Below, piece after piece: positions 7,735 through 47,807 of a stretch of DNA of 64,000 nt (its first letter is position 1; each line of letters begins with the position of its first letter). Made by a program: the position numbers and the translations under genes. The DNA is taken from assembly GCA_944391285.1 (NCBI GenBank), contig CALXSY010000005.1:11196-75195 (forward strand), written 5' to 3'. The notes beneath the pieces were generated by a model that did no database searches, had not been told where the DNA came from, and saw only the letters and a list, made by a program, of their open reading frames with translations. The stretch is from an uncultured Clostridia bacterium. GTDB lineage: Bacteria; Bacillota; Peptococcia; Peptococcales; Peptococcaceae.

Positions 7735-7972
7735 AAATAGCCTGTGAACAAGAGGAGTAGGATGTGGATCATCTACAGAGAAAAAGACTGCGTTTTCGTG
7801 CTGGGAGGTCTTTGATGGGGTCGTATCTGAAGTCGCTTGGGAGGCGTGAGATTGATAATAGATCTCTCCGGGTGAGCCCGTTACAGCTGATGAGTGCTGT
7901 CGCTGACAGAATTAAGGTGGTACCACGGAAGCTTACACTTTCGTCCTTTTGAGGGCGGAAGTGTTTTTTATT
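7735..7972 (+). promoter_or_regulatory. T-box riboswitch leader (Val specifier) controlling valS
   Basis: Stem-I AGAGA element. Candidate specifier GUC followed by a purine (ctgaaGTCg, 7832-7834). Conserved T-box sequence aattaaggtggtaccacgg (7910-7928). Terminator stem 7936-7960 plus T-run to 7969. Confidence 0.9.
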
Positions 7973-20649: not shown

Positions 20650-20917
20650 CAATAAAAATGCTATGACCAAGAAGTAGTAACTATGGCAAAACCTTAAAGA
20701 GAGTTGGCGGTTGGTGCAAGCCAATGAAGGGGAGAAATAGTGAATTCATCTTGAGAGCAGCACGCCGAGATTTTAGTAGGTGGTGACGGTTGCGCCCGTT
20801 ATAGTGCTAGGGTATAAGCAATAGCCGTACCCAAAGAGGATATCGTCGTAAGGCGATATTAAATTGAGGTGGTACCACGGGATATTTGCCCGTCCTCTGA
20901 GTTGAGGACGGGTTTTT
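20650..20917 (+). promoter_or_regulatory. T-box riboswitch leader (candidate Phe specifier UUC) controlling the paaK-like/ACT operon
   Basis: Stem-I aaagagag...ggtgcaag. Specifier-loop context agtgaaTTCa (20745-20747). T-box sequence aaattgaggtggtaccacgg (20861-20880). Terminator cccgtcctc-tgagt-tgaggacggg plus T6 (20889-20917). Confidence 0.88.
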
Positions 20918-27769: not shown

Positions 27770-30748
27770 ATGAGGAAAAGAAAAATCTGGGCTTTTGTTA
27801 CTTTGGTAGCTTTTGCCTTAACCATGATGCCTATGGGAGCCTTTGCAGCCTCAGCCAGCAATTCATCAATTGCAGTTGATGACAGCAGTGCCAAAGCCAA
27901 TGGCGAGGACACTTTGACCTATATCGTCGATTTGGATGATGATTTAAAAACTACCCAGACCACCGGCGATAGCTACACTGAAGTTAGTAGCGTTAACACC
28001 AAAGAGGTCTTAACCCAAATCTATTATGATTCTGACGGATCAACTACTTATAATATTGACGATGTTTATGATGAAGACATAACTTATTATAATAAGGTTG
28101 AAGGTCAGCCAGCAGAATATGGAGAGGTTGTATCCCCTGCAACCGAAACATATTTAACAGAAGCTGCAAGCTACATTTCTAACGGCAGTATCGGCGGTGA
28201 CAGCATTACAATTGTCGAGCAGTCTTCCGGCGAAGAGTTTGATGAAGCTAAAACTTATGTTCAAATTACCCAGGATACAGGGACATACGACGAAAGCAAG
28301 AGTTATTATACTAAATCGGGAGATACCTATACAAAAACAAAGGAAGTAATAACTCCTTCAGAGGGAGAATATTACACCATTGAAGCAACTGAACCAACTA
28401 CCGAAAAAAAATTAACTGCTGATTATTACACAGAAAATGAAGGAGTTTATACTGAAGTTAAAAGCGGTACTGCCTATGTTGCTGGAACTACTTATTATGA
28501 GCAGACCCAACCGGCTACAGAAGACAGTTATTCTATAGCTACTCCAACTACCAAAACAGTATTAGCAGAAGATTATTATGATGAAAACGGAAATCTCGAC
28601 TATGCAAAAGATAGCGATTATGATGAAACAGGAGAAACAAAATACTATCAAAAAGGCACAGCAACAACTACCAAAGCCGCTCAGTATTTATTCATCTGGG
28701 CGGAGAGAAACGGCTCCTATTCCGATGCCGATTATCTTGCCTTAAATGATGAAGACGGCACTTATGAAGACGGCACTTACAGCTCTTATCTGGCATTGGA
28801 CTACACCGACATTGAAGCCGGCGAAAGCACTGTTTATGTCAAATCCAATACCGCCGGAACAATCACCTTGAAAGCCTATATCATTACCTCTGATTATCTG
28901 CCCAGCTTTGCAGAGGTTTACAACGGCTCTTCCGAATTCTTGAAAACTGCTTTAGTAGGAAGCGGTGACACCGGTAAATTTTCTGCTACCTCCAGCGAGA
29001 TTACCGTTGAAGGTACAGTAACGCCTTATGTGAGCGGCGATGCCGGCACCAGTTCGGATTTCGAAGCCGATGCAACCTATGACAGCGGGCTAAGAGCCAA
29101 CAACGGCGTTGATTACTACTATGTATCTTTGAAATTCAAAAAAGGCGGCAGTAAATTAGTCGGCGAAGATGTAGCTTTTGCTGTTGATAAAAACGGAGCT
29201 ACCATCAACAAAGAAGAGGATACAACCTCAGCTACCGGTGCGGTAAACTTTAAAGTTTCTGCCAGCAAATCCGGCACTTATACCGTTACTATTGACTGCG
29301 GCAGTTACAGCGAATCAATTGAATTAGTCTTCGGTGCTTCCAGCATCACTAAAGTAAATGTAGTTTCCAGCGCTGAAGAAACTATTGCTGTAGACCAAAA
29401 TGAAGAAGTAGCAGTAGAGGTAGTGGCTTATGATGCCAACGGCAATTCCATTAAGGCTTCTGATTCCGTTGCTTCGACCTTAAATGAAGATTTCAGTGTT
29501 GAAGTAACCAGCGCCCCCAGCGATTCTTCCTGGGAGGATGAAACCTTAAGTGATCCTTTCAAGTACAATTCCAATTATTCTTCTTATGTTTATTTAAGCT
29601 TTGAGCCCGATGCTGTCGGCTCCTACACCTTAAAGATTTACAACAATACCACCGGTGTAGCGGACTATGCTTATTTGACCGCCGAGGAATTCGGCACAAT
29701 CGCTTCGGCAACTATTTCCTATGATTCGGCTTCCTACACCTTAGGCAGCACTACTGAAACTCCGACGGTAAAAGTAGTTGACCAAAACGGCGTCACCAAA
29801 ACCGCTTCTGCAAGCTCCACTAAATTTTCTTACAGCGGTGTCGGAGTAGCAAGCTTTGATTCTTCTAACGGTGTTATCACCTTTAGAGATGATGAAGAGT
29901 ACGTCGGCAATCAGATTACGGTAAATGTAGTAGTTAGTAATAAAGTTTCTGCTTCCACCACCATTACTATCGGCAATGAAGCTTCTTACTTAAGCTTTGC
30001 TGAAACTGACGGTGCCGTCGGTGAAGAGGTTAGTGTAACTGGTTATGCTTACGATGCTGACGGCAATTTAAGTGCAATCGGCGGCACCAGTGATGATTAT
30101 ACCGTAACGGTGCAAAGTGCATTGATTACTTCTAAACCTGAAGGCAGTACCGCTACCATTGACGCCGACAATTTTGAAGATGCAGCCAATAACTTCTTAA
30201 GTGAAGGCTATGGAACGGTAGTCGTCAGCTGCAATACGGAAGGTACTGTAGTTGGCAATGTAGTTATAGAGATTACCGACAATGACACTTCGGAAACATT
30301 TTATTTAGCCGGCGTAGTTACCGTTAATTTCGGCGAAGCAAGCACTTCCGGAAACAACTATGCTCAGACTGTAACTATGATTCTTGGCTCCAATACCTTT
30401 GTTTATGACGGAGGAGTCTGCACCACTGACGTCGCTCCCTTTATCAGCAACGGACGCACCATGATCGCTATCCGTGCTTTAGCTGAATCTACCGGTGCTG
30501 ATGTTGAGTACAACGATGCTACCCAAACTGTCACCATTACCGGCGACGGGATAGAAGCTACTATGATTATCGGTTCCAATATTTTAACCGTTAACGGAGA
30601 AACTACCGTCATGGATGCATCTGCATCAATCGTTGACGGCAGAACAGTTATCCCGGTACGCTATGCTGCGGAAATCTTAGGCTATGACTTTGAATTAACT
30701 TACGACGATAACGGCAACATCGTAGCCGTAACTATGTATCAAGAATAA
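27770..30748 (+). CDS. Secreted cell-surface protein B (paralogue of A, same architecture, also 992 aa)
   Basis: Colinear with 24461-27439. The signal peptide, residues from ~303 onward and the C-terminal copper-amine-oxidase-N-like domain are highly similar. Residues ~62-302 are strongly diverged but keep the Tyr-rich repeats. Confidence 0.85.
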   Translation: MRKRKIWAFVTLVAFALTMMPMGAFAASASNSSIAVDDSSAKANGEDTLTYIVDLDDDLKTTQTTGDSYTEVSSVNTKEVLTQIYYDSDGSTTYNIDDVYDEDITYYNKVEGQPAEYGEVVSPATETYLTEAASYISNGSIGGDSITIVEQSSGEEFDEAKTYVQITQDTGTYDESKSYYTKSGDTYTKTKEVITPSEGEYYTIEATEPTTEKKLTADYYTENEGVYTEVKSGTAYVAGTTYYEQTQPATEDSYSIATPTTKTVLAEDYYDENGNLDYAKDSDYDETGETKYYQKGTATTTKAAQYLFIWAERNGSYSDADYLALNDEDGTYEDGTYSSYLALDYTDIEAGESTVYVKSNTAGTITLKAYIITSDYLPSFAEVYNGSSEFLKTALVGSGDTGKFSATSSEITVEGTVTPYVSGDAGTSSDFEADATYDSGLRANNGVDYYYVSLKFKKGGSKLVGEDVAFAVDKNGATINKEEDTTSATGAVNFKVSASKSGTYTVTIDCGSYSESIELVFGASSITKVNVVSSAEETIAVDQNEEVAVEVVAYDANGNSIKASDSVASTLNEDFSVEVTSAPSDSSWEDETLSDPFKYNSNYSSYVYLSFEPDAVGSYTLKIYNNTTGVADYAYLTAEEFGTIASATISYDSASYTLGSTTETPTVKVVDQNGVTKTASASSTKFSYSGVGVASFDSSNGVITFRDDEEYVGNQITVNVVVSNKVSASTTITIGNEASYLSFAETDGAVGEEVSVTGYAYDADGNLSAIGGTSDDYTVTVQSALITSKPEGSTATIDADNFEDAANNFLSEGYGTVVVSCNTEGTVVGNVVIEITDNDTSETFYLAGVVTVNFGEASTSGNNYAQTVTMILGSNTFVYDGGVCTTDVAPFISNGRTMIAIRALAESTGADVEYNDATQTVTITGDGIEATMIIGSNILTVNGETTVMDASASIVDGRTVIPVRYAAEILGYDFELTYDDNGNIVAVTMYQE

Positions 30749-30766
30749 ACCCTCATCATATATTAA

Positions 30767-30797
30767 GACTAATCTCTTAGGGGATTAGTCTTTTTTT
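30767..30797 (+). terminator. Intrinsic terminator of surface protein B
   Basis: gactaatc-tcttagg-gattagtc plus T7. Confidence 0.8.
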
Positions 30798-30851
30798 GTA
30801 ATCTGGAAGTAAAAAATATGTTATTTTTTTTGACAAATATCCTTTTACCCC

Positions 30852-30880
30852 TTGACAATTTCCCGGGAAATGCGTATACT
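30852..30880 (+). promoter_or_regulatory. Promoter of the polyamine-operon leader
   Basis: TTGACA (30852-30857), 17-bp spacer, TATACT (30875-30880). Confidence 0.65.
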
Positions 30881-30886
30881 TAGATT

Positions 30887-31228
30887 CGTATGAATGATAT
30901 TCCTGATGGGACTTTCATGCAAATATTTTCGACCACCTTTATCTTAAAGGTTAAGGCCACGGACAGCCGGGTCGACTGCCGATCGGCAACTTTGGTTGCC
31001 TTATTGATTGGGTTTTATGCTCAAATTTTATAAGTTGGTTACTTTATAACCAGTGTGCCTTTTGCACATCATGCTTGTGAAACGGTCAATAAGAGTAGTA
31101 AAAGTAAAATATTTGCTGTATAGACTCTGATCCCATCTTTAAGTATTTCGTATCTTTTCGTCTGTCCGAAAAATATTATGTCGAAATACCCAAGCAAGCA
31201 ATGTGCCAATGCATTGCTTGCTTTTTTA
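30887..31228 (+). promoter_or_regulatory. Long structured 5' leader with intrinsic terminator, upstream of speD (unclassified attenuator/riboswitch candidate)
   Basis: About 340 nt between the promoter and a strong terminator: aagcaagcaatg-tgccaatg-cattgcttgctt plus T-run (31192-31228). Several perfect small hairpins: ccttta/taaagg 30945-30960, ggcaac/gttgcc 30984-31000, nested gtatttcg...cgaaatac 31142-31179. No known riboswitch class recognised. Confidence 0.6.
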
Positions 31229-31255
31229 TTTTTTAAATTTTAGGAGGGGTATATT

Positions 31256-32014
31256 ATGGAGAAAAAACTTAAATTATATGGCTTTAATAACCTCACCAAG
31301 TCATTGAGTTTTAATATTTACGATGTCTGCTATGCCAAAACACCAAGAGAGCAGAAAGATTATATTGCTTATGTTGACGAGCAATATAATTCAGAACGTC
31401 TAACCAAAATTTTGACTAATTTAACCGATATGATAGGGGCCAATATCCTCAATATCTCCAAGCAGGATTATGATCCGCAGGGTGCATCGGTAACTATTTT
31501 GATTGCTGAGCAAAGTATGACTCCGGTAGGAGAAACTCAAGTAGCTCATTTGGATAAAAGCCATGTGACTGTTCATACCTATCCGGAATATCATCCGGAA
31601 ACCTGCTTAGCAACTTTTCGGGTTGATATTGATGTAGCTACCTGCGGGGAAATCACACCGCTTTCTACATTGGACTTTTTAATCAGCTCCTTTGATTCGG
31701 ATATCATCACTATGGATTATCGGGTCAGAGGCTTCACCAGAGATGTTGACGGCAAAAAGTTATTTATGGATCACAAGGTAGCGTCTATTCAAGATTATAT
31801 CGATCCTAAAACCTTGAGAAGATATGACGCTGTTGATATCAATGTTTATGAAGCTAATCTCTTCCATACTAAAATGATGGTTAAAGATATTGATTTGCAA
31901 AATTATCTTTTTAAAACCGATGTATACGAATTGCCTCCCTGCGAGAGATTAGAAATAATGAACAATCTTCGCCGGGAGATGATTGAAATCTTCAGCGGCT
32001 GCAATATTTTTTGA
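31256..32014 (+). CDS. speD: S-adenosylmethionine decarboxylase proenzyme (E. coli-type SpeD)
   Basis: N-terminus [23 protein letters not shown] and autoprocessing site AHLDK|[10 protein letters not shown] matching the E. coli SpeD Lys-Ser cleavage site. GGAGGGG RBS. Confidence 0.9.
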
Positions 32015-32027
32015 GGAGGAATAGCCA

Positions 32028-33479
32028 ATGTTGTCACAAGAGCGGGCGCCTATTTATGAAGCGCTGGAAAACTTCAAAAAAATGCGGGTTGTGCCCTTTG
32101 ATGTGCCTGGGCACAAAAGGGGCAGAGGTAATCCGGAGCTGGTTGCTTTATTGGGTGAAAAATGCGTAAGCATGGATGTTAATTCCATGAAGCCTTTGGA
32201 CAACTTATGTCATCCTATATCGGTTATCCGCGAAGCGGAAGATTTAGCGGCAGAAGCTTTCGGCGCTGCGCACGCCTTTTTAATGGTCGGCGGTACAACT
32301 TCAGCGGTGCAAAGCATGGTGCTGTCGGTGGTAAAGAGGGGAGATAAAATAATTTTACCCCGCAATGTTCACCGCAGTGTTATGGGAGCTTTGGTTTTAT
32401 GCGGTGCTGTGCCGGTGTATGTCAATCCGGAATGTGATGAACGTTTAGGCATTTCCTTAGGGATGTCCATAGATGCCGTTAAACAAGCTATTGCCGACAA
32501 TCCGGAGGCTAAGGCTATTTTGGTCAATAATCCGACCTATTACGGAATTTGCTCCGATTTAAAAAGCATCGTGGAGCTGGCTCACGCTCACGGCATGTAT
32601 TGCTTAGCTGACGAAGCTCACGGCACTCATTTTTATTTCGGTGAAAATATGCCTATCTCGGCAATGGCTGCCGGCGCTGATATGGCAGCAGTTTCGATGC
32701 ATAAATCCGGCGGCAGCTTAACCCAGTCCTCGTTACTATTAATCGGGGAAAATATTCAGGAAGGCTATGTACGCCAGATTATCAATCTGACTCAGACCAC
32801 CAGCGCTTCCTATTTATTATTATCCAGCTTGGATATTTCCCGACGCAATCTGGCATTGAGAGGTAAAGAAGCCTTTGCCAAAGTTGCGCAAATGGCTCAA
32901 TACGCCCGCAAAGAAATTAATTCTATCGGCGGGTATTATGCCTACGGTTCTGAGTTGATAAACGGTGACAGCGTATATGATTTTGATACCACTAAATTAG
33001 CTGTCAATACCTTAGATATCGGCTTAGCCGGCATCGAGGTTTATGATCTTCTGCGTGATGAGTACGATATTCAAATAGAATTCGGCGATTTGGGCAATAT
33101 TTTGGCTTATCTTTCCATCGGCGACCGAGAAAGGGATTTGGAGAGATTGGTCAGCTCTTTAGCAGAGATTCGCCGCCGCTTCGGCAAAAGCGGCAATGAG
33201 CTGATGAAGCAGGAGTATATAGACCCCAAAGTAGTTGCTTCGCCCCAGGAGGCTTTTTATGCTGACAAGGAATCCTTGCCTATCGAGCAGACTGAAGGAA
33301 GAATTTCCAGCGAATTTCTCATGTGCTATCCTCCGGGTATTCCCATTATTGCTCCCGGTGAGTTGATTACCAAAGAAATTTTAAATTATATTCAGTATGC
33401 TAAGGAAAAAGGCTGTTCCATCACCGGACCGGAAGATGCCGAGATAACTCGTTTAAATGTGTTGAAGGAGGGAGTTTAA
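32028..33479 (+). CDS. speA: PLP-dependent Orn/Lys/Arg decarboxylase (fold I), probable arginine decarboxylase as in Bacillus SpeA
   Basis: FDVPGHK.G N-terminus and PLP-lysine motif SMHKSGGSLTQSS. 483 aa. Sits in an operon with agmatinase. Confidence 0.8.
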   Translation: MLSQERAPIYEALENFKKMRVVPFDVPGHKRGRGNPELVALLGEKCVSMDVNSMKPLDNLCHPISVIREAEDLAAEAFGAAHAFLMVGGTTSAVQSMVLSVVKRGDKIILPRNVHRSVMGALVLCGAVPVYVNPECDERLGISLGMSIDAVKQAIADNPEAKAILVNNPTYYGICSDLKSIVELAHAHGMYCLADEAHGTHFYFGENMPISAMAAGADMAAVSMHKSGGSLTQSSLLLIGENIQEGYVRQIINLTQTTSASYLLLSSLDISRRNLALRGKEAFAKVAQMAQYARKEINSIGGYYAYGSELINGDSVYDFDTTKLAVNTLDIGLAGIEVYDLLRDEYDIQIEFGDLGNILAYLSIGDRERDLERLVSSLAEIRRRFGKSGNELMKQEYIDPKVVASPQEAFYADKESLPIEQTEGRISSEFLMCYPPGIPIIAPGELITKEILNYIQYAKEKGCSITGPEDAEITRLNVLKEGV

Positions 33480-34339
33480 TGGATTTATGGTTTTCCGAAA
33501 AACAAACGCCTTATGTTAAATTGTCCATCAAGGTAGACCGTCAGCTTTACAGCGGCAGAAGCGAATTTCAGCGGATTGATGTTTTTGAATCACCGGAATT
33601 CGGGCGTTTTTTGACCTTGGACGGCTACATGATGTTAACGGAAAAAGATGAATTTATCTATCATGAGATGATTACCCATGTGCCGATGGCAGTACACCCC
33701 AATGTCAAAAATGTTTTGGTAATCGGCGCCGGAGACGGCGGTGTTATCCGTGAATTAGCCCGCTATAATGATTTGGAGCATATCGACATGGTGGAGATTG
33801 ATCCGCTGGTAGTGGAGGTGTGCAAAAAATATTTGCCTCAGACAGCCTGCGCCTTTGATGATCCCCGTTTGGATATTCACTATGAAGACGGACTGAAATT
33901 TATCCGCAACTATGAGAATTGCTATGATTTGATTATCGTTGATTCCACCGATCCCTTTGGACCTGGTGAAGGATTATTTACCCGTGAATTTTACGGCAAC
34001 TGCTATAAGGCGCTGAAAGACGACGGTATTATGGTTAATCAGCACGAAAGCCCCTTCTATGAAGAGGATAGAATTGCCTGTCAGAGAGCCCATAAGCGCA
34101 TTGTTGAATCATTCCCCATCAGTAGAGTTTATCAGGCGCATATTCCGACATATCCGTCCGGACATTGGCTTTTTGGTTTTGCTTCCAAAAAATATCACCC
34201 GCTGAAAGATTTAGACTCCGTTCGCTGGAATGCTCGGGGATTAAAATGCAATTATTACACAACTATGCTTCACCGGGGAGCATTTTATATTCCCGCTTAT
34301 GTAGAGGAGATGCTAAAAGATGTTGAAAGCGAATATTGA
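33479..34339 (+). CDS. speE: Spermidine synthase (aminopropyltransferase)
   Basis: LDG..M.TE.DEF.YHEM, VIGAGDGGVIRE, IIVDSTDP.GPGEGLF. Confidence 0.92.
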   Translation: MDLWFSEKQTPYVKLSIKVDRQLYSGRSEFQRIDVFESPEFGRFLTLDGYMMLTEKDEFIYHEMITHVPMAVHPNVKNVLVIGAGDGGVIRELARYNDLEHIDMVEIDPLVVEVCKKYLPQTACAFDDPRLDIHYEDGLKFIRNYENCYDLIIVDSTDPFGPGEGLFTREFYGNCYKALKDDGIMVNQHESPFYEEDRIACQRAHKRIVESFPISRVYQAHIPTYPSGHWLFGFASKKYHPLKDLDSVRWNARGLKCNYYTTMLHRGAFYIPAYVEEMLKDVESEY

Positions 34340-35174
34340 GACTTTTTTAGCCTGTGATGCTGATTATAATGAGGCGCAGATTGTCATGTTCGGCGCACCT
34401 TATGATTCCACAACTTCATTTCGTCCGGGCACCCGTTTCGGTGCTCACGCCATCCGCTCCGAATCCTTCGGTTTAGAAAGCTACTCGCCGTATCAGGACA
34501 AGGATTTAACGGATTATGCTATCTTAGATATAGGCGATTTAGAATTGCGTTTTGGCGGACCGGAGAGTGCATTAAATGATATCGAGGACTGTGCCGAAGA
34601 AATTTTAGCCGATAATAAACTGCCCTTTTTAATCGGCGGTGAGCATTTAGTAACATTAGGCGCATTCAGAGCGGTGCAGAAGAAATATAATGATGTTTAT
34701 ATTATTCATTTTGATGCTCATGCAGATTTGAGGGAAGATTATCTGGGCGAAAAGCTTTCGCATGCTTGTGTCATGCGCCGCTGCTGGGATATCATCGGCG
34801 ACGGACACATTTTTCAATTCGGTATTCGCTCCGGCGACAAGTCCGAATGGCTCTTTGCCAAAGAGCATGTGACCATGAATCCTTTTAATTTAGAAACTTT
34901 AGAAGATGTAGTTGCCAAGCTTAAAGATAAAAAGGTTTATTTTACCCTTGATTTGGATATTTTGGATCCGTCAGTTTTTCCCGGAACCGGGACACCGGAG
35001 GCAGGAGGAATATCCTTTGACGAATTAAGAAAAGCAGTAACTTTAATTTGTCAAAGCTTGGATATCGTGGGTGTTGATGTGAACGAACTAAGCCCTCACT
35101 ATGACCAAAGCGGCACTTCGACGGCGGTCGCTTGCAAAATCATCAGAGAAATGTTATTAGCCTTAACCAAATAA
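34320..35174 (+). CDS. speB: Agmatinase (ureohydrolase family)
   Basis: Mn-binding motifs HFDAHADL, DLDILDP and GGIS..E. 284 aa. Overlaps the speE 3' end by 20 nt. Confidence 0.88.
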   Translation: MLKANIETFLACDADYNEAQIVMFGAPYDSTTSFRPGTRFGAHAIRSESFGLESYSPYQDKDLTDYAILDIGDLELRFGGPESALNDIEDCAEEILADNKLPFLIGGEHLVTLGAFRAVQKKYNDVYIIHFDAHADLREDYLGEKLSHACVMRRCWDIIGDGHIFQFGIRSGDKSEWLFAKEHVTMNPFNLETLEDVVAKLKDKKVYFTLDLDILDPSVFPGTGTPEAGGISFDELRKAVTLICQSLDIVGVDVNELSPHYDQSGTSTAVACKIIREMLLALTK

Positions 35175-35198
35175 GAGACACCAAAGGAGGAAATTTAA

Positions 35199-36458
35199 AT
35201 GGGAAAAGCATTAATTATCGGTTGCGGTGGAGTTGCCGGCGTAGTAATTCATAAATGCTGCCAAAACAGCGAGGTTTTTGAGGAAATCTGCATTGCCAGC
35301 CGTACCAAATCCAAATGCGACGACATGAAAGCTAAGTTGGAAGATACTACTAAAACCAAAATCACCACTGCGCAAGTTGACGCTGATAAAGTAGAAGAGG
35401 TTATCGCTTTAATCAACGAAGTGAAACCGGATATCGTGATGAATATCGCTCTGCCTTATCAGGATTTAACTATTATGGACGCTTGCTTGGCTTGCGGTGT
35501 TAACTATATGGATACCGCCAACTATGAGCCTGAAGATATCACCGAACCCACTTGGCGGGCAGCTTACGAAAAACGCTGTAAGGAAGAAGGCTTCACCGCT
35601 TATTTTGATTATTCCTGGCAATGGGCATATAAAGAAAAATTTGAAAAAGCCGGCTTAACTGCTCTCTTAGGCTCTGGCTTTGACCCCGGTGTTACTCAAG
35701 CCTACTGCGCTTATGCCCAAAAGCATTTATTTGACCAAATCGATACTATCGATATTTTGGACTGCAATGGCGGTGACCATGGTTATCCTTTCGCTACCAA
35801 CTTTAACCCGGAGATTAACCTTAGAGAAGTATCCGCTCCCGGCTCTTACTGGGAAAACGGTCATTGGGTAGAAATTCCGGCAATGAGCATCAAAAGAGAA
35901 TACAATTTCGACCAAGTAGGCATGAAAGATATGTACCTTTTGCACCACGAAGAAATTGAATCCTTAGCGAAAAATATCCCCGGTGTTAAACGCATTCGTT
36001 TCTTTATGACCTTTGGACAAAGCTATCTTACTCACATGAACTGCCTGCAAAATGTCGGTATGCTTTCTACCGAACCGATTATGTATGAGGGCAGAGAAAT
36101 CGTGCCTATCCAATTTTTAAAAGCTCTCTTGCCTGACCCGGCATCTTTAGGTCCCCGCACTGTGGGCAAGACCAATATCGGCTGTATCTTCACCGGCAAA
36201 AAGGACGGCAAAGAAAAGACCGCTTACATTTATAACGTCTGTGACCACCAGGAATGCTACAAAGAAGTAGGCTCGCAAGCTATTTCATACACCACCGGTG
36301 TGCCGGCAATGATTGGTGCGATGATGCTTCTAACCGGCAAATGGTCCAAACCAGGCGTTTATACTGTAGAGGAATTTGATCCAGATCCGTACATGGAAGC
36401 CTTAAACAAATGGGGATTGCCTTGGCAGATCGATGATAATCCGGTATTGGTGGACTGA
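35199..36458 (+). CDS. Carboxy(nor)spermidine dehydrogenase (saccharopine-dehydrogenase family, CASDH/CANSDH)
   Basis: N-terminal Rossmann IIGCGGVAGV, ~419 aa, immediately upstream of and start/stop-overlapping an nspC-type decarboxylase. Confidence 0.82.
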   Translation: MGKALIIGCGGVAGVVIHKCCQNSEVFEEICIASRTKSKCDDMKAKLEDTTKTKITTAQVDADKVEEVIALINEVKPDIVMNIALPYQDLTIMDACLACGVNYMDTANYEPEDITEPTWRAAYEKRCKEEGFTAYFDYSWQWAYKEKFEKAGLTALLGSGFDPGVTQAYCAYAQKHLFDQIDTIDILDCNGGDHGYPFATNFNPEINLREVSAPGSYWENGHWVEIPAMSIKREYNFDQVGMKDMYLLHHEEIESLAKNIPGVKRIRFFMTFGQSYLTHMNCLQNVGMLSTEPIMYEGREIVPIQFLKALLPDPASLGPRTVGKTNIGCIFTGKKDGKEKTAYIYNVCDHQECYKEVGSQAISYTTGVPAMIGAMMLLTGKWSKPGVYTVEEFDPDPYMEALNKWGLPWQIDDNPVLVD

Positions 36459-37594
36459 TGATGGAAAAATTTGACGATGGTGCCTTACGCACACCTTATT
36501 ATTTGATTGACGAGAGTCTGTTAAAGCATAATTTAGAAATACTGCAGGACGTGGCTGAAAGAAGCGGGGCGAAAATTTTATTAGCTCAAAAAGCTTTTTC
36601 CATGTTTGCTGTTTATCCGCTGTTAAATCAATATTTGGCAGGCACAGCCGCCAGCGGTTTATACGAAGCAAGGCTGGGGCATGAATATTTCGGGGGAGAA
36701 ACGCATGTTTTTTCCCCTGCTTTTCGTGAGGACGAGTTTGCGGAAATATTGCGCTATGCCGACCATGTAGTGTTTAACTCACCGGCACAGGTGAAAAAGT
36801 TTGCGCCGCAAGCCAAAGCGGCAGGCAAAGAAGTAGGTATTCGGATTAATCCCGAATGCTCCACCCAAGAAGGTCACGCCATTTATGACCCTTGCGCCGT
36901 GGGTTCCCGCTTAGGCACAACTTTGGCGAATTTTGACGAAAGTATTTTGCCCCTTTTGGACGGTATGCATTTTCATACTCTATGCGAGCAAAACAGCGAT
37001 GATTTGGAAACGACTTTAAAGGCTTTTGAAGAGAAATTCGGCAAATATCTTCCTGATTTAAAATGGCTTAATTTAGGCGGAGGGCATCATATTACCCGCA
37101 AAGATTACGATCTTGAACGCTTAGTTAAGCTGATTATTCATCTAAAAGAAACATATAATCTCCAAGTTTATTTAGAGCCGGGAGAAGCGGTAGTCTTAAA
37201 TGCCGGCTTTTTGGTAACTTCAGTTTTGGAAACTATGCACAACGGTATGGATATTGCCATTTTGGATACCTCAGCGGCTTGCCATATGCCCGATGTCTTG
37301 GAAATGCCTTACCGACCGCCGTTATATAATGAACAAAAGGACAATCCACCCTATACTTACCGTTTGGGCGGACCTACCTGCTTAGCAGGAGATATAATCG
37401 GCGATTACGGCTTTAGCCAAAGGCTGAAAGCCGGCGATCGGTTAGTTTTTTTGGACATGGCTTTATATACCATGGTCAAAAACAACACCTTTAACGGTAT
37501 GCCGTTACCAATGATCGTGCTGAAACATTTAGATGGCTCCTTTGAAATTGTACGCCGGTTCGGCTATGAGGATTTCAAAAACCGCTTATCCTAA
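36458..37594 (+). CDS. nspC: Carboxy(nor)spermidine decarboxylase
   Basis: TPYYLIDE..L..N N-terminus, LNLGGGHH motif, alanine-racemase-fold decarboxylase, 378 aa. ATGATG overlap with the upstream gene. Confidence 0.85.
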   Translation: MMEKFDDGALRTPYYLIDESLLKHNLEILQDVAERSGAKILLAQKAFSMFAVYPLLNQYLAGTAASGLYEARLGHEYFGGETHVFSPAFREDEFAEILRYADHVVFNSPAQVKKFAPQAKAAGKEVGIRINPECSTQEGHAIYDPCAVGSRLGTTLANFDESILPLLDGMHFHTLCEQNSDDLETTLKAFEEKFGKYLPDLKWLNLGGGHHITRKDYDLERLVKLIIHLKETYNLQVYLEPGEAVVLNAGFLVTSVLETMHNGMDIAILDTSAACHMPDVLEMPYRPPLYNEQKDNPPYTYRLGGPTCLAGDIIGDYGFSQRLKAGDRLVFLDMALYTMVKNNTFNGMPLPMIVLKHLDGSFEIVRRFGYEDFKNRLS

Positions 37595-46993: not shown

Positions 46994-47027
46994 AAAAACC
47001 AATCCCTAAAAGGGATTGGTTTTTTTA
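46994..47027. terminator. Bidirectional intrinsic terminator
   Basis: aaaaaaccaatccct-aaa-agggattggttttttt. Confidence 0.85.
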
Positions 47028-47807
47028 TTTTATGCGGTCGATAGCTTTTAAAATACCGTAAATAATTGCCGGCGGGCGGGGAGGACAGCCGGGAATATAC
47101 ATATCAACAGGAATAACGCTGTCTACACCGTTATTGGTCGCATAACTATCTCTAAAGATACCACCGCTTAAAGCACAAGCACCGCAGGCTACAACAATTT
47201 TCGGATCCGGTGTTGCTTCGTAGGCTTGCAGGAGAGCTCTGTGCATATTGCGGGTAACCGAACCGGTCACTAAAAGCATATCAGCGTGGCGGGGAGAAGC
47301 CACAAAAGTAATGCCTAAGCGCTCTAAATCGTTCAAAGGGTTCATCAGCGCATTGGCTTCGTAATCACAGCCGTTGCAGGAGCCGGCGTCAATTTCTCGG
47401 ATCTGCAAAGAGCGGCGCAGGGTTTTTTGAATCTTAGTTTTTAGTTCCTCCGCCAATGCTTCCGTATCAACTGCCGGAATTTGCTCAATAATCATAGGTT
47501 TGCGGAGTAAATTGGCTTTATTGCTGGTGCTGTCGGTGAAGGATTCGGTCATGAATATTGCTTGAGCGTGGCAAAGGTCAGCACATAAGCTGCAATAGAT
47601 GCATTGGTCGATATGCACATTGGGATAGCCGTCATTATCAATGCTAATCGCTTTAGCCGGACAATTCTGGGCGCAGATACGGCATTTCTGACATTTATCA
47701 GCCAGTATAGCCGGTGCACCAACATAGCCGGTATTGTCAATGGGCTTAAAGGGATAATCATTGGTCAAGCGGCGATATTTCAATACTTTTTCGTATTTTT
47801 TCAGCAT
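47025..47807 (-). CDS. Fusion of a 2x[4Fe-4S] ferredoxin module (HycF/HyfH/NuoI-like) to a NuoB/HycG/HyfI-like small subunit
   Basis: N-terminal half: CQKCRICAQNCP and CIYCSLCADLCH. C-terminal half: DAGSCNGCDYE, ACGACALSGG and IPGCPPRP, the NuoB-type proximal-cluster ligands. Confidence 0.85.
   Translation of the reverse strand: MLKKYEKVLKYRRLTNDYPFKPIDNTGYVGAPAILADKCQKCRICAQNCPAKAISIDNDGYPNVHIDQCIYCSLCADLCHAQAIFMTESFTDSTSNKANLLRKPMIIEQIPAVDTEALAEELKTKIQKTLRRSLQIREIDAGSCNGCDYEANALMNPLNDLERLGITFVASPRHADMLLVTGSVTRNMHRALLQAYEATPDPKIVVACGACALSGGIFRDSYATNNGVDSVIPVDMYIPGCPPRPPAIIYGILKAIDRIK

Follow-up and report, generated by a model that had tools for sequence, protein, structure and literature searches.

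A conserved RNA of the ldcC family, predicted to act as a transcription attenuator, upstream of a polyamine operon in an uncultured Clostridia bacterium

Polyamines are essential polycations. The ldcC motif, a bulged hairpin with many invariant nucleotides that is widespread in Firmicutes, sits in the 5' untranslated regions (5' UTRs) of arginine, ornithine and S-adenosylmethionine (SAM) decarboxylase genes and of potA, and a possible role in polyamine homeostasis was proposed for it in 2017 (Weinberg et al. 2017, PMC5737381). The sole validated polyamine riboswitch class that we found in the literature is a spermidine-sensing variant of SAM-I, which in Firmicutes stops transcription ahead of ldcC, speE and speB; its consensus derives from 13 representatives and its ligand has been demonstrated (Salvail et al. 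2023, PMC10853860). Here we describe the leader of a six-gene polyamine operon beginning with speD, within 64,000 nucleotides (nt) of contig CALXSY010000005.1 from an uncultured Clostridia bacterium; this whole stretch is referred to as the window, and all coordinates are positions within it. The leader belongs to the ldcC family, and the conserved RNA of which the ldcC motif is part is almost certainly a cis-regulatory structured RNA.

The whole window was compared with the Rfam 15 covariance models using cmscan, and the leader region (30750-31300) was examined down to E ≤ 10. Positions 30930-30982 match RF02440 (SpF59 sRNA/ldcC RNA) at 63.0 bits (gathering score 37.2) and a whole-window E-value of 5.7e-9. 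The match is full-length, aligning 53 nt of the window to model positions 1-54 of 54, and includes the bulged hairpin with the conserved AAGGCC..CGGACAGCCGGGUC and the 3' tail UGCCGA; window 30952-30982 fits the ldcC consensus save for one 2-nt deletion (AU). Its 5' UTR position, 274 nt upstream of a speD gene that scores above the TIGR03331 cut-off, is also that of an ldcC motif. The nucleotides of the pseudoknot proposed by Weinberg et al. (2017) are invariant in all copies and so show no covariation. The T-box, SAM-family and M-box models have no match in the leader region at E ≤ 10, and the remaining Rfam families there all have E ≥ 0.45 with scores well below their gathering scores. Every testable feature of the ldcC motif is thus present, and those of T-box and SAM-I leaders are absent. 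Elsewhere in the window there are two T-box leaders (RF00230), at 7735-7951 (+) with 107.7 bits and at 20654-20900 (+) with 138.9 bits (gathering score 93).

An earlier sequence-only reading of this region, made from the letters and open reading frames (ORFs), had described an unclassified structured leader with the anatomy of a transcription-attenuation switch, neither T-box nor SAM-I, whose control of the polyamine genes would be new. The observation is confirmed, and its interpretation is partly supported. The leader is an attenuator by its anatomy, with a conserved structured RNA, a terminal intrinsic terminator and a conserved, co-varying antiterminator strand, and it is indeed neither T-box nor SAM-I at the threshold above. 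It is not unclassified: a confident match to an existing RNA family, which that reading had itself named as telling against it, is present at 63 bits versus 37.2. Nor is the idea new, since the ldcC motif was linked to polyamine homeostasis in 2017 (PMC5737381). Conservation and covariation among the leaders of relatives, which it had proposed as a check, are both found (76 of 80 speD loci and 28 of 44 base pairs, as described below).

The Rfam model covers about one fifth of the conserved element (53 nt of ~260 nt). Eighty genomic loci were gathered with SpeD as bait, from Oscillospiraceae, Lachnospiraceae, Christensenellaceae, other Clostridia and one Bacillus-titled record. In 46 of these loci speD is preceded by the ldcC core at a distance of 224-471 nt, making long leaders the norm, and alignment of the 46 leaders shows conservation from ~30914 to 31129, past the end of the Rfam match at 30982; no sequence conservation is seen among the 46 beyond ~31130. 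RNAalifold predicts 48 pairs in the leaders, and 16 of these show compensatory changes. A covariance model of the part 3' of the Rfam match, designated R1 (window 30984-31129; 144 positions, 44 base pairs), matches 76 of the 80 speD loci and matches the window once, at 153.5 bits. In the R1 alignment 94.3% of cells are paired, compared with 87.7% after column shuffling and ~39% with slid partners, and compensatory (both-side) changes occur in 28 of the 44 pairs compared with 12.9 in shuffles, a count reached by none of 500 shuffles; the alignment was fitted to the model and hence leans towards the model's own structure. With ~94% of cells paired and 28 of 44 pairs compensatory, the leader contains the conserved putative aptamer with covariation-supported structure that is expected of a riboswitch. 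Frequent U-G pairs identify the + strand as the RNA strand. Because a closing helix (P0) pairs 30888-30911 with 31131-31153, the element is taken to span ~30888-31153, and its 3' domain, represented by R1, is absent from Rfam. A second copy was considered at window 47083, where the 10-mer GGACAGCCGG recurs exactly, and was rejected: it lies within a minus-strand ORF (47025-47807), and since neither Rfam nor R1 matches there and R1 finds a single copy in the window, the recurrence is attributed to chance.

The stems of intrinsic terminators normally drift freely in sequence. The 5' arm of the terminator preceding speD (CAAGCAATGTG, 31195-31205) is instead of a kind conserved across genera, with arms such as ACAGGCAATGTG, GCAAGTGATG and CGCAAGTCTGCAC. 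Its complement is an internal strand of the RNA, CACAT CA TGCTTG (31065-31077), comprising the 3' half of hairpin Hg and the start of the 3' strand of helix Pe, and because this complement is conserved and co-varies with the arm we identify it as the antiterminator 5' strand (the switch strand). In the window, CACAT 31065-31069 pairs with ATGTG 31201-31205 and TGCTTG 31072-31077 with CAAGCA 31195-31200, giving 11 bp with a 2-nt bulge. Across 64 genomic leaders the duplex of switch strand and terminator arm averages -11.9 kcal/mol, versus -5.2 for other windows of the linker and -5.9 for a shuffled strand, and the arm is the best linker partner of the switch strand in 75% of these leaders; the corresponding values for 67 non-redundant metagenomic leaders (among the matches listed) are -15.5, -6.8 and -7.3 kcal/mol, and 85%. 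The two strands also change together, with CATCAACTTG/CAAGTGATG in speD-type leaders and GCAGACTTG/CAAGTCTGC in decarboxylase-type leaders, and a G/A polymorphism after CTTGT is mirrored by C/T in the arm (G with C or T in 60 of 81 leaders, A with T in 9 of 16). Base-by-base counts in a fixed register are noisy because bulges differ between groups, and the duplex-energy tests are the firmer evidence.

Nearest-neighbour energies for the window give the two states equal stability when the nascent RNA reaches 31207 (aptamer fold and antiterminator fold both -85.0 kcal/mol); after the 3' arm of the terminator is made, the terminator state is at -104.1 kcal/mol versus -87.2. These energies therefore associate the folded aptamer with termination and the unfolded RNA with the antiterminator and read-through. 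The mutually exclusive structures that characterize a riboswitch, coupled to a putative aptamer, are accordingly present in computed form (31065-31077 in the folded domain versus paired with 31195-31205), and we consider the terminator/antiterminator mechanism, as modelled, highly probable. The sequence-only reading had suggested a different long-range pairing, GGACAG at 30961 with CTGTCC at 31162. Both sequences are present, but this pairing was rejected as the switch: CTGTCC occurs in 3 of 46 linkers, and because the duplex of ldcC core and linker is no better than shuffled (-12.1 versus -12.9 kcal/mol) the complementarity is probably due to chance.

The folded RNA is built, from 5' to 3' and entirely on the + strand, as follows. 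The 5' strand of P0 (30888-30911) comprises segments 30888-30893, 30896-30901 and 30905-30911 (GATGGGA), which in the minimum free energy (MFE) fold pair with the 3' strand at 31131-31153 (TCCCATC 31131-31137, AGTATT 31142-31147 and TTCGTA 31148-31153), the 3' boundary of the conserved fold. Among the loci, a leader's own P0 flanks pair better than flanks exchanged with other loci (-8.5 versus -6.3 kcal/mol; Wilcoxon p = 9e-8), and in relatives complementarity to the 5' flank extends over GACTCTG and the next ~16, non-conserved nt. Helix Pa joins GCAAATA (30919-30925), just 5' of the ldcC hairpin, to TATTTGC (31110-31116). Its partner is found by RNAduplex at a constant place in nearly all loci, with variants GCAGGAAT/ATTCTTGC and GCAAGA/TCTTGC, and on a structure-blind MAFFT alignment (A1) 91.8% of its cells are paired, with compensatory changes in 3 of 7 pairs. 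The ldcC motif itself (30930-30982) has an outer stem (30931-30934/30970-30973), an inner stem (30935-30940/30946-30951), a bulge (30952-30969) and the 3' tail ACTGCCGA; all 6 pairs of the inner stem co-vary, and the outer stem and bulge are invariant. Hairpin Hb (GGCAAC/GTTGCC, 30985-31000) follows, with 96% of cells paired and 6 of 6 pairs compensatory.

The junction domain (31002-31091), which lies within R1 and forms a three-way junction, contains two long-range helices, Pc (TATTGATT/GGTCAATA, 31002-31009/31084-31091) and Pe (TTTTATAAGT/GCTTGTGAAA, 31026-31035/31073-31082), both 96-97% paired with changes mostly from G-U to A-U, and three hairpins that co-vary at 4 of 4 pairs (Hd, 31010-31013/31019-31022), 5 of 6 pairs (Hf, 31036-31041/31047-31052) and 5 of 5 pairs (Hg, 31054-31058/31064-31068). 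A nearly invariant purine-rich joining region (AGAGTAGTAAAAGTAAAA, 31092-31109; columns invariant or >90% conserved) leads to the 3' strand of Pa and the conserved CTGTATAGACTCTG (31110-31130). Within these segments AGAGT 31092-31096 can pair with ACTCT 31124-31128 to form a helix, Ph, which is 99% paired with no compensatory change and would be pseudoknotted with Pa. In most relatives GACTCTG can pair instead with a 5' CAGAGT; this 5' box is missing from the window, where the flanking P0 is used instead. We also observe that the 5' sequence AGAGTA-TCCAT-GCAAATA of most relatives (window 30912-30925) resembles the internal AGAGTA-GTAAAA-GTAAGTA (31092-31109), and that both are complementary to the 3' segment TATTTGC-TATAT-AGACTCT (31110-31128); 30912-30925 and 31092-31109 may thus constitute a second, internal pair of alternative pairings for 31110-31128.

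All of the short hairpins listed by the sequence-only reading are present, some with coordinates off by ~10 nt. Its GGCAAC/GTTGCC and TGTGC/GCACA hairpins correspond to Hb (30985-30990/30995-31000) and Hg, both conserved co-varying helices, and its CCTTTA/TAAAGG hairpin is the conserved and co-varying ldcC inner stem, which is ACCTTT/AAAGGT at 30935-30940/30946-30951 and not at 30945-30960. The nested hairpin near the 3' end (GTATTTCG...CGAAATAC, with TTTTCG/CGAAAA inside it) is part of the MFE fold and lies at 31143-31189, not 31142-31179. It was rejected as a conserved element since conservation ends at ~31130, and it is specific to this lineage.

The ldcC hairpin is, to judge from its distribution, a small and in some lineages dispensable part of this RNA. 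Ten R1-positive loci have no Rfam match at the gathering threshold, and nhmmer likewise finds no ldcC motif in them. In six Lachnospiraceae leaders (L016, L034, L037, L040, L045 and L046) TCCATGCAAATATTTT is joined directly to Hb, so that the ldcC hairpin is cleanly absent, and the remaining RNA and the coupling to the terminator are kept (region ~140 nt upstream of the speD-leader R1 matches); in others of the ldcC-less leaders a divergent hairpin stands in its place. A close relative of the ldcC-less Lachnospiraceae loci, L035, retains the ldcC hairpin. A metagenome scan with the exact ldcC core, a sample biased to gut Clostridia and to exact core matches, found at least 120 loci, and among the matches listed the 3' domain immediately follows the ldcC core in all 104 loci with at least 260 nt downstream. 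The RNA also occurs on contigs classed as viral: L081 is matched by both the ldcC-core and the 3'-domain patterns, and L084-L086, matched by the ldcC-core pattern, carry the full RNA, followed in L085 and L086 by a decarboxylase-speE operon. Two other viral-contig matches to the 3'-domain pattern were rejected as chance matches inside phage genes. In L085 (8431-8589), on a viral-classed contig, a 15-nt tandem duplication (GTGAAACGGTCAAT repeated) in the 3' domain splits the nhmmer match, and the near-identical L086 is without it.

Three shorter variants (L043:1169-1449, L050:2719-3001 and L053:2723-3001) keep the ldcC hairpin, Pc and Pe, have no Hg, and end in GGACCTCT only ~85 nt from the start codon, with no terminator found. 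In these, GCAAGT, the complement of the ACTTG of the switch strand, precedes a hairpin (CCATCTT/AGGATGG) that covers the ribosome binding site (RBS), and on this sequence pattern they could represent a form of the switch that acts on translation.

The intergenic region runs from the terminator at 30765-30792, which closes the preceding gene, to the speD start codon (ATG, 31256). Directly upstream is a 992-aa ORF (27770-30748, +) with a signal-peptide-like N-terminus and a composition rich in Thr, Ser, Asp and Tyr, for which an NCBIfam search of the product gave no match; as this ORF ends in its own strong terminator, the leader is regarded as a separate transcription unit. A sigma-70-type promoter-like site (TTGACA-17 nt-TATACT, 11 of 12 positions matching) is located at 30852-30880 (+), predicting a transcription start at ~30887, and relatives have comparable -35 and -10 boxes shortly 5' of the conserved sequence CGTATGGA. 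The intrinsic terminator (31192-31234, +) has a 14-bp stem with a 4-nt loop (31192-31223), containing G+C and followed directly by the U-run (TTTTATTTTT), as such terminators should; scanning 30600-31400 gives four terminator-like sites where 0.4 are expected. The RBS (AGGAGGGG, 31242-31249, +) lies between the terminator and the speD ATG, and no independent speD promoter is found between 31235 and 31256.

The ~370 nt between the promoter-like site and speD contain no credible gene. The ORFs are all short (47 aa at 30890-31033, +; 46 aa at 31069-31209, -; 34 aa at 31203-31307, +), and the candidate leader peptides (the 47-aa ORF and ORFs from ATG 31018 and ATG 31072) were rejected, since their frames are broken and a Shine-Dalgarno sequence is lacking in front of them. 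Relatives do not preserve the reading frame of the 47-aa ORF, their hairpin loops differing by non-multiples of three, and ATG 31072 is missing from most relatives, which have A-ACTTG in place of ATGCTTG. The 349-nt leader folds with an MFE of -104.1 kcal/mol, compared with -74.8 ± 5.4 after shuffling (z = -5.4), and none of 100 shuffles folds as stably. The consensus promoter, the gene-free structured leader and the strong terminator just upstream of speD had each been read correctly from the sequence.

The leader is followed by an operon of six polyamine genes (31256-37594, +): speD, encoding an E. coli-type SAM decarboxylase (31256-32014; Pfam, and TIGR03331 above cut-off); an Orn/Lys/Arg (OKR) decarboxylase gene (32028-33479; Pfam and NCBIfam, with the substrate not singled out among the three); speE (33479-34339; NF002010/TIGR00417 above cut-off); speB, agmatinase (34320-35174; TIGR01230 above cut-off); a carboxynorspermidine-synthase-like gene (35199-36458; 429 bits, below the model's 800-bit cut-off); and nspC (36458-37594; TIGR01047 above cut-off), all on the + strand. 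With speD, speE and speB beside the carboxynorspermidine-synthase-like gene and nspC, both spermidine routes are represented, in agreement with the sequence-only reading. Members of the RNA family precede speD, OKR decarboxylase, carboxynorspermidine synthase or potA genes. Among the metagenomic matches listed, the first gene encodes an OKR decarboxylase in 60, SpeD in 19 and a PotA-like ABC ATPase (ABC_tran + TOBE_2) in ~10, and in at least three loci a saccharopine-dehydrogenase-like protein comes first.

On balance we favor the interpretation that the leader, an ldcC-family RNA, attenuates transcription in cis as an OFF switch for polyamine (spermidine) sufficiency, perhaps by direct binding. 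The first ~260 nt of a transcript from the promoter at 30852-30880 (~30888-31153) would fold into the large conserved domain comprising P0, Pa, the ldcC hairpin with its invariant bulge, Hb, the junction domain (Pc, Hd, Pe, Hf and Hg) and the purine-rich strand. The strand at 31065-31077 would then choose between its partners inside this domain and the terminator 5' arm at 31195-31205. If the domain is stably folded, the switch strand would be locked, the terminator at 31192-31223 would form and transcription would stop before speD; if it is not stabilized, the antiterminator would form and the six-gene operon would be transcribed. Polyamine sufficiency is proposed as the stabilizing signal because genes for polyamine synthesis and the potA gene for import are both found downstream of the RNA, and with two synthesis routes and import under one signal and the folded state OFF, the arrangement would amount to end-product repression. 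We infer an OFF response to polyamine sufficiency with reasonable though not strong confidence, with spermidine, the common end product, as the best candidate. Spermidine could well be bound by the RNA itself, making this an OFF riboswitch; taken separately, direct polyamine binding has in our estimation slightly less than an even chance.

Several observations weigh against this interpretation. The switch strand is ~120 nt upstream of the terminator (100-250 nt in relatives) with a non-conserved linker between them, which is unusual for riboswitch expression platforms; alternative pairings coexist among Ph, P0 and Pa; and the energy comparisons derive from nearest-neighbour models. Many helices are rich in A-U and G-U pairs, so folding might respond to cations in general. 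The ldcC hairpin is missing from at least 10 otherwise intact leaders, making the ligand-binding part hard to assign, and the literature after 2017 yielded no ligand or mechanism for the ldcC motif.

The lack of a published ligand since 2017 would also suit a variant of the same attenuator in which the sensor acts in trans, with a polyamine-binding or other regulatory protein, a ribosomal component or a tRNA stabilizing or melting the fold. The ~260-nt size and the long invariant single-stranded tracts (AAGAGUAGUAAAAGUAAG and the 18-nt ldcC bulge) are typical of protein- and tRNA-binding leaders too, and the ldcC hairpin is lost without change elsewhere, as a modular protein site would be. We consider such a factor unlikely, though the strongest of the alternatives: no regulator gene adjoins the leader in the window, and the Rfam T-box model has no match in the leader region at E ≤ 10. 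The repeat signatures of TRAP, HutP, PyrR, RAT and ANTAR, as far as they are known to us, are not evident in the leader by eye, no formal test having been made. Somewhat less likely again is an RNA that senses directly something other than the end product, whether SAM, decarboxylated SAM (dcSAM), agmatine, arginine, putrescine or, as the M-box does, general polycation or Mg2+ status. Spermidine is not the only metabolite to which the gene set points, SAM being a substrate of SpeD and an amino acid that of the decarboxylase; any polycation would affect the weak A-U/G-U helices Pe, Pc and Pa; and the two states of the window are isoenergetic at the decision point. Control of potA together with both spermidine routes nevertheless points to the common end product, an ON switch activated by a precursor fits poorly with a folded aptamer that is the termination-compatible state, and the M-box and SAM classes are unmatched in the Rfam scan of the leader region.

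A role mainly as a trans-acting small RNA (sRNA) like SpF59, with the terminator merely ending its gene, accords with the typing of RF02440 in Rfam, which is "Gene; sRNA" with a name from the Streptococcus sRNA SpF59, and promoter and terminator would yield a discrete ~345-nt transcript. This is very improbable given that the RNA lies directly upstream of, and in the same orientation as, a polyamine gene in 76 of 80 speD loci and in 104 of 104 sufficiently long metagenomic loci (among the matches listed), that speD has no independent promoter in 31235-31256, and that some variants without a terminator appear to occlude the RBS instead; covariation of the terminator arm with an internal strand of the aptamer would moreover be pointless for a plain sRNA terminator. 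A/T-rich DNA often contains perfect hairpins of short length, and neither the linker hairpin nor GGACAG/CTGTCC is conserved, so a spacer with chance hairpins, an ordinary terminator-like hairpin and no regulatory role might be imagined; the fold z-score of -5.4, the Rfam E-value of 5.7e-9 and the conservation and covariation across many genera refute it to the point that we give it practically no weight.

The kind of element, a riboswitch-like attenuator, and the ldcC family, an orphan in function, are already known, and the described extent of that family is incomplete. Relative to Rfam 15 and the literature searched, what appears to be new is the ~260-nt architecture, the dispensability of the ldcC hairpin, the existence of ldcC-less leaders missed by Rfam, and the identity of the switching strand, which lies in the uncatalogued part of the RNA. 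A model of the R1 type extends detection to those missed leaders, and the element defines a construct for ligand screens (30888-31153 plus the terminator to 31235) with concrete mutants. The architecture offers an account of how synthesis and uptake of polyamines could be controlled together in gut Clostridia, and if the effector is spermidine, a dominant group of gut bacteria would have this RNA as its principal polyamine sensor. More tentatively, and in our view with the probability on the other side, the ~260-nt RNA could be a second, structurally unrelated and far commoner class of polyamine (spermidine) riboswitch in Firmicutes, with the 3' domain and closing helices as its core and ldcC as an accessory; if the 3' domain is the sensing core, assays on the 54-nt motif alone could not have revealed the ligand.

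Four known systems invite comparison. In the M-box (ykoK) Mg2+ riboswitch, cation-induced compaction of a large multi-helix aptamer sequesters the antiterminator strand so that the terminator forms, and as a working analogy the leader described here likewise has a large fold that sequesters an antiterminator strand with the folded state OFF; it has no match to the M-box in sequence or structure, it precedes polyamine and not Mg2+-transport genes, and cation dependence here is speculative. T-box leaders are similar in size and in their transcription-attenuation logic in Firmicutes, but tRNA binding stabilizes their antiterminator, the opposite polarity to that predicted here, and the leader has no T-box model match, T-box sequence or specifier architecture. 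With the spermidine-sensing SAM-I variant (PMC10853860) it shares the polyamine gene set and, as predicted here, an OFF terminator switch with a competing antiterminator and end-product control. The folds are unrelated, with no SAM-family Rfam match at E ≤ 10, and the frequencies differ, the SAM-I variant being rare (13 representatives) and this leader RNA occurring in 76 of 80 speD loci and at least 120 metagenomic loci. The closest relative is the ldcC motif RF02440 (PMC5737381), with a full-length match above threshold, the same 5' UTR position (decarboxylase, SAM decarboxylase and potA genes) and the same suspected role; unlike the published 54-nt bulged hairpin, the motif is here one branch of a co-varying ~260-nt fold coupled to a terminator.

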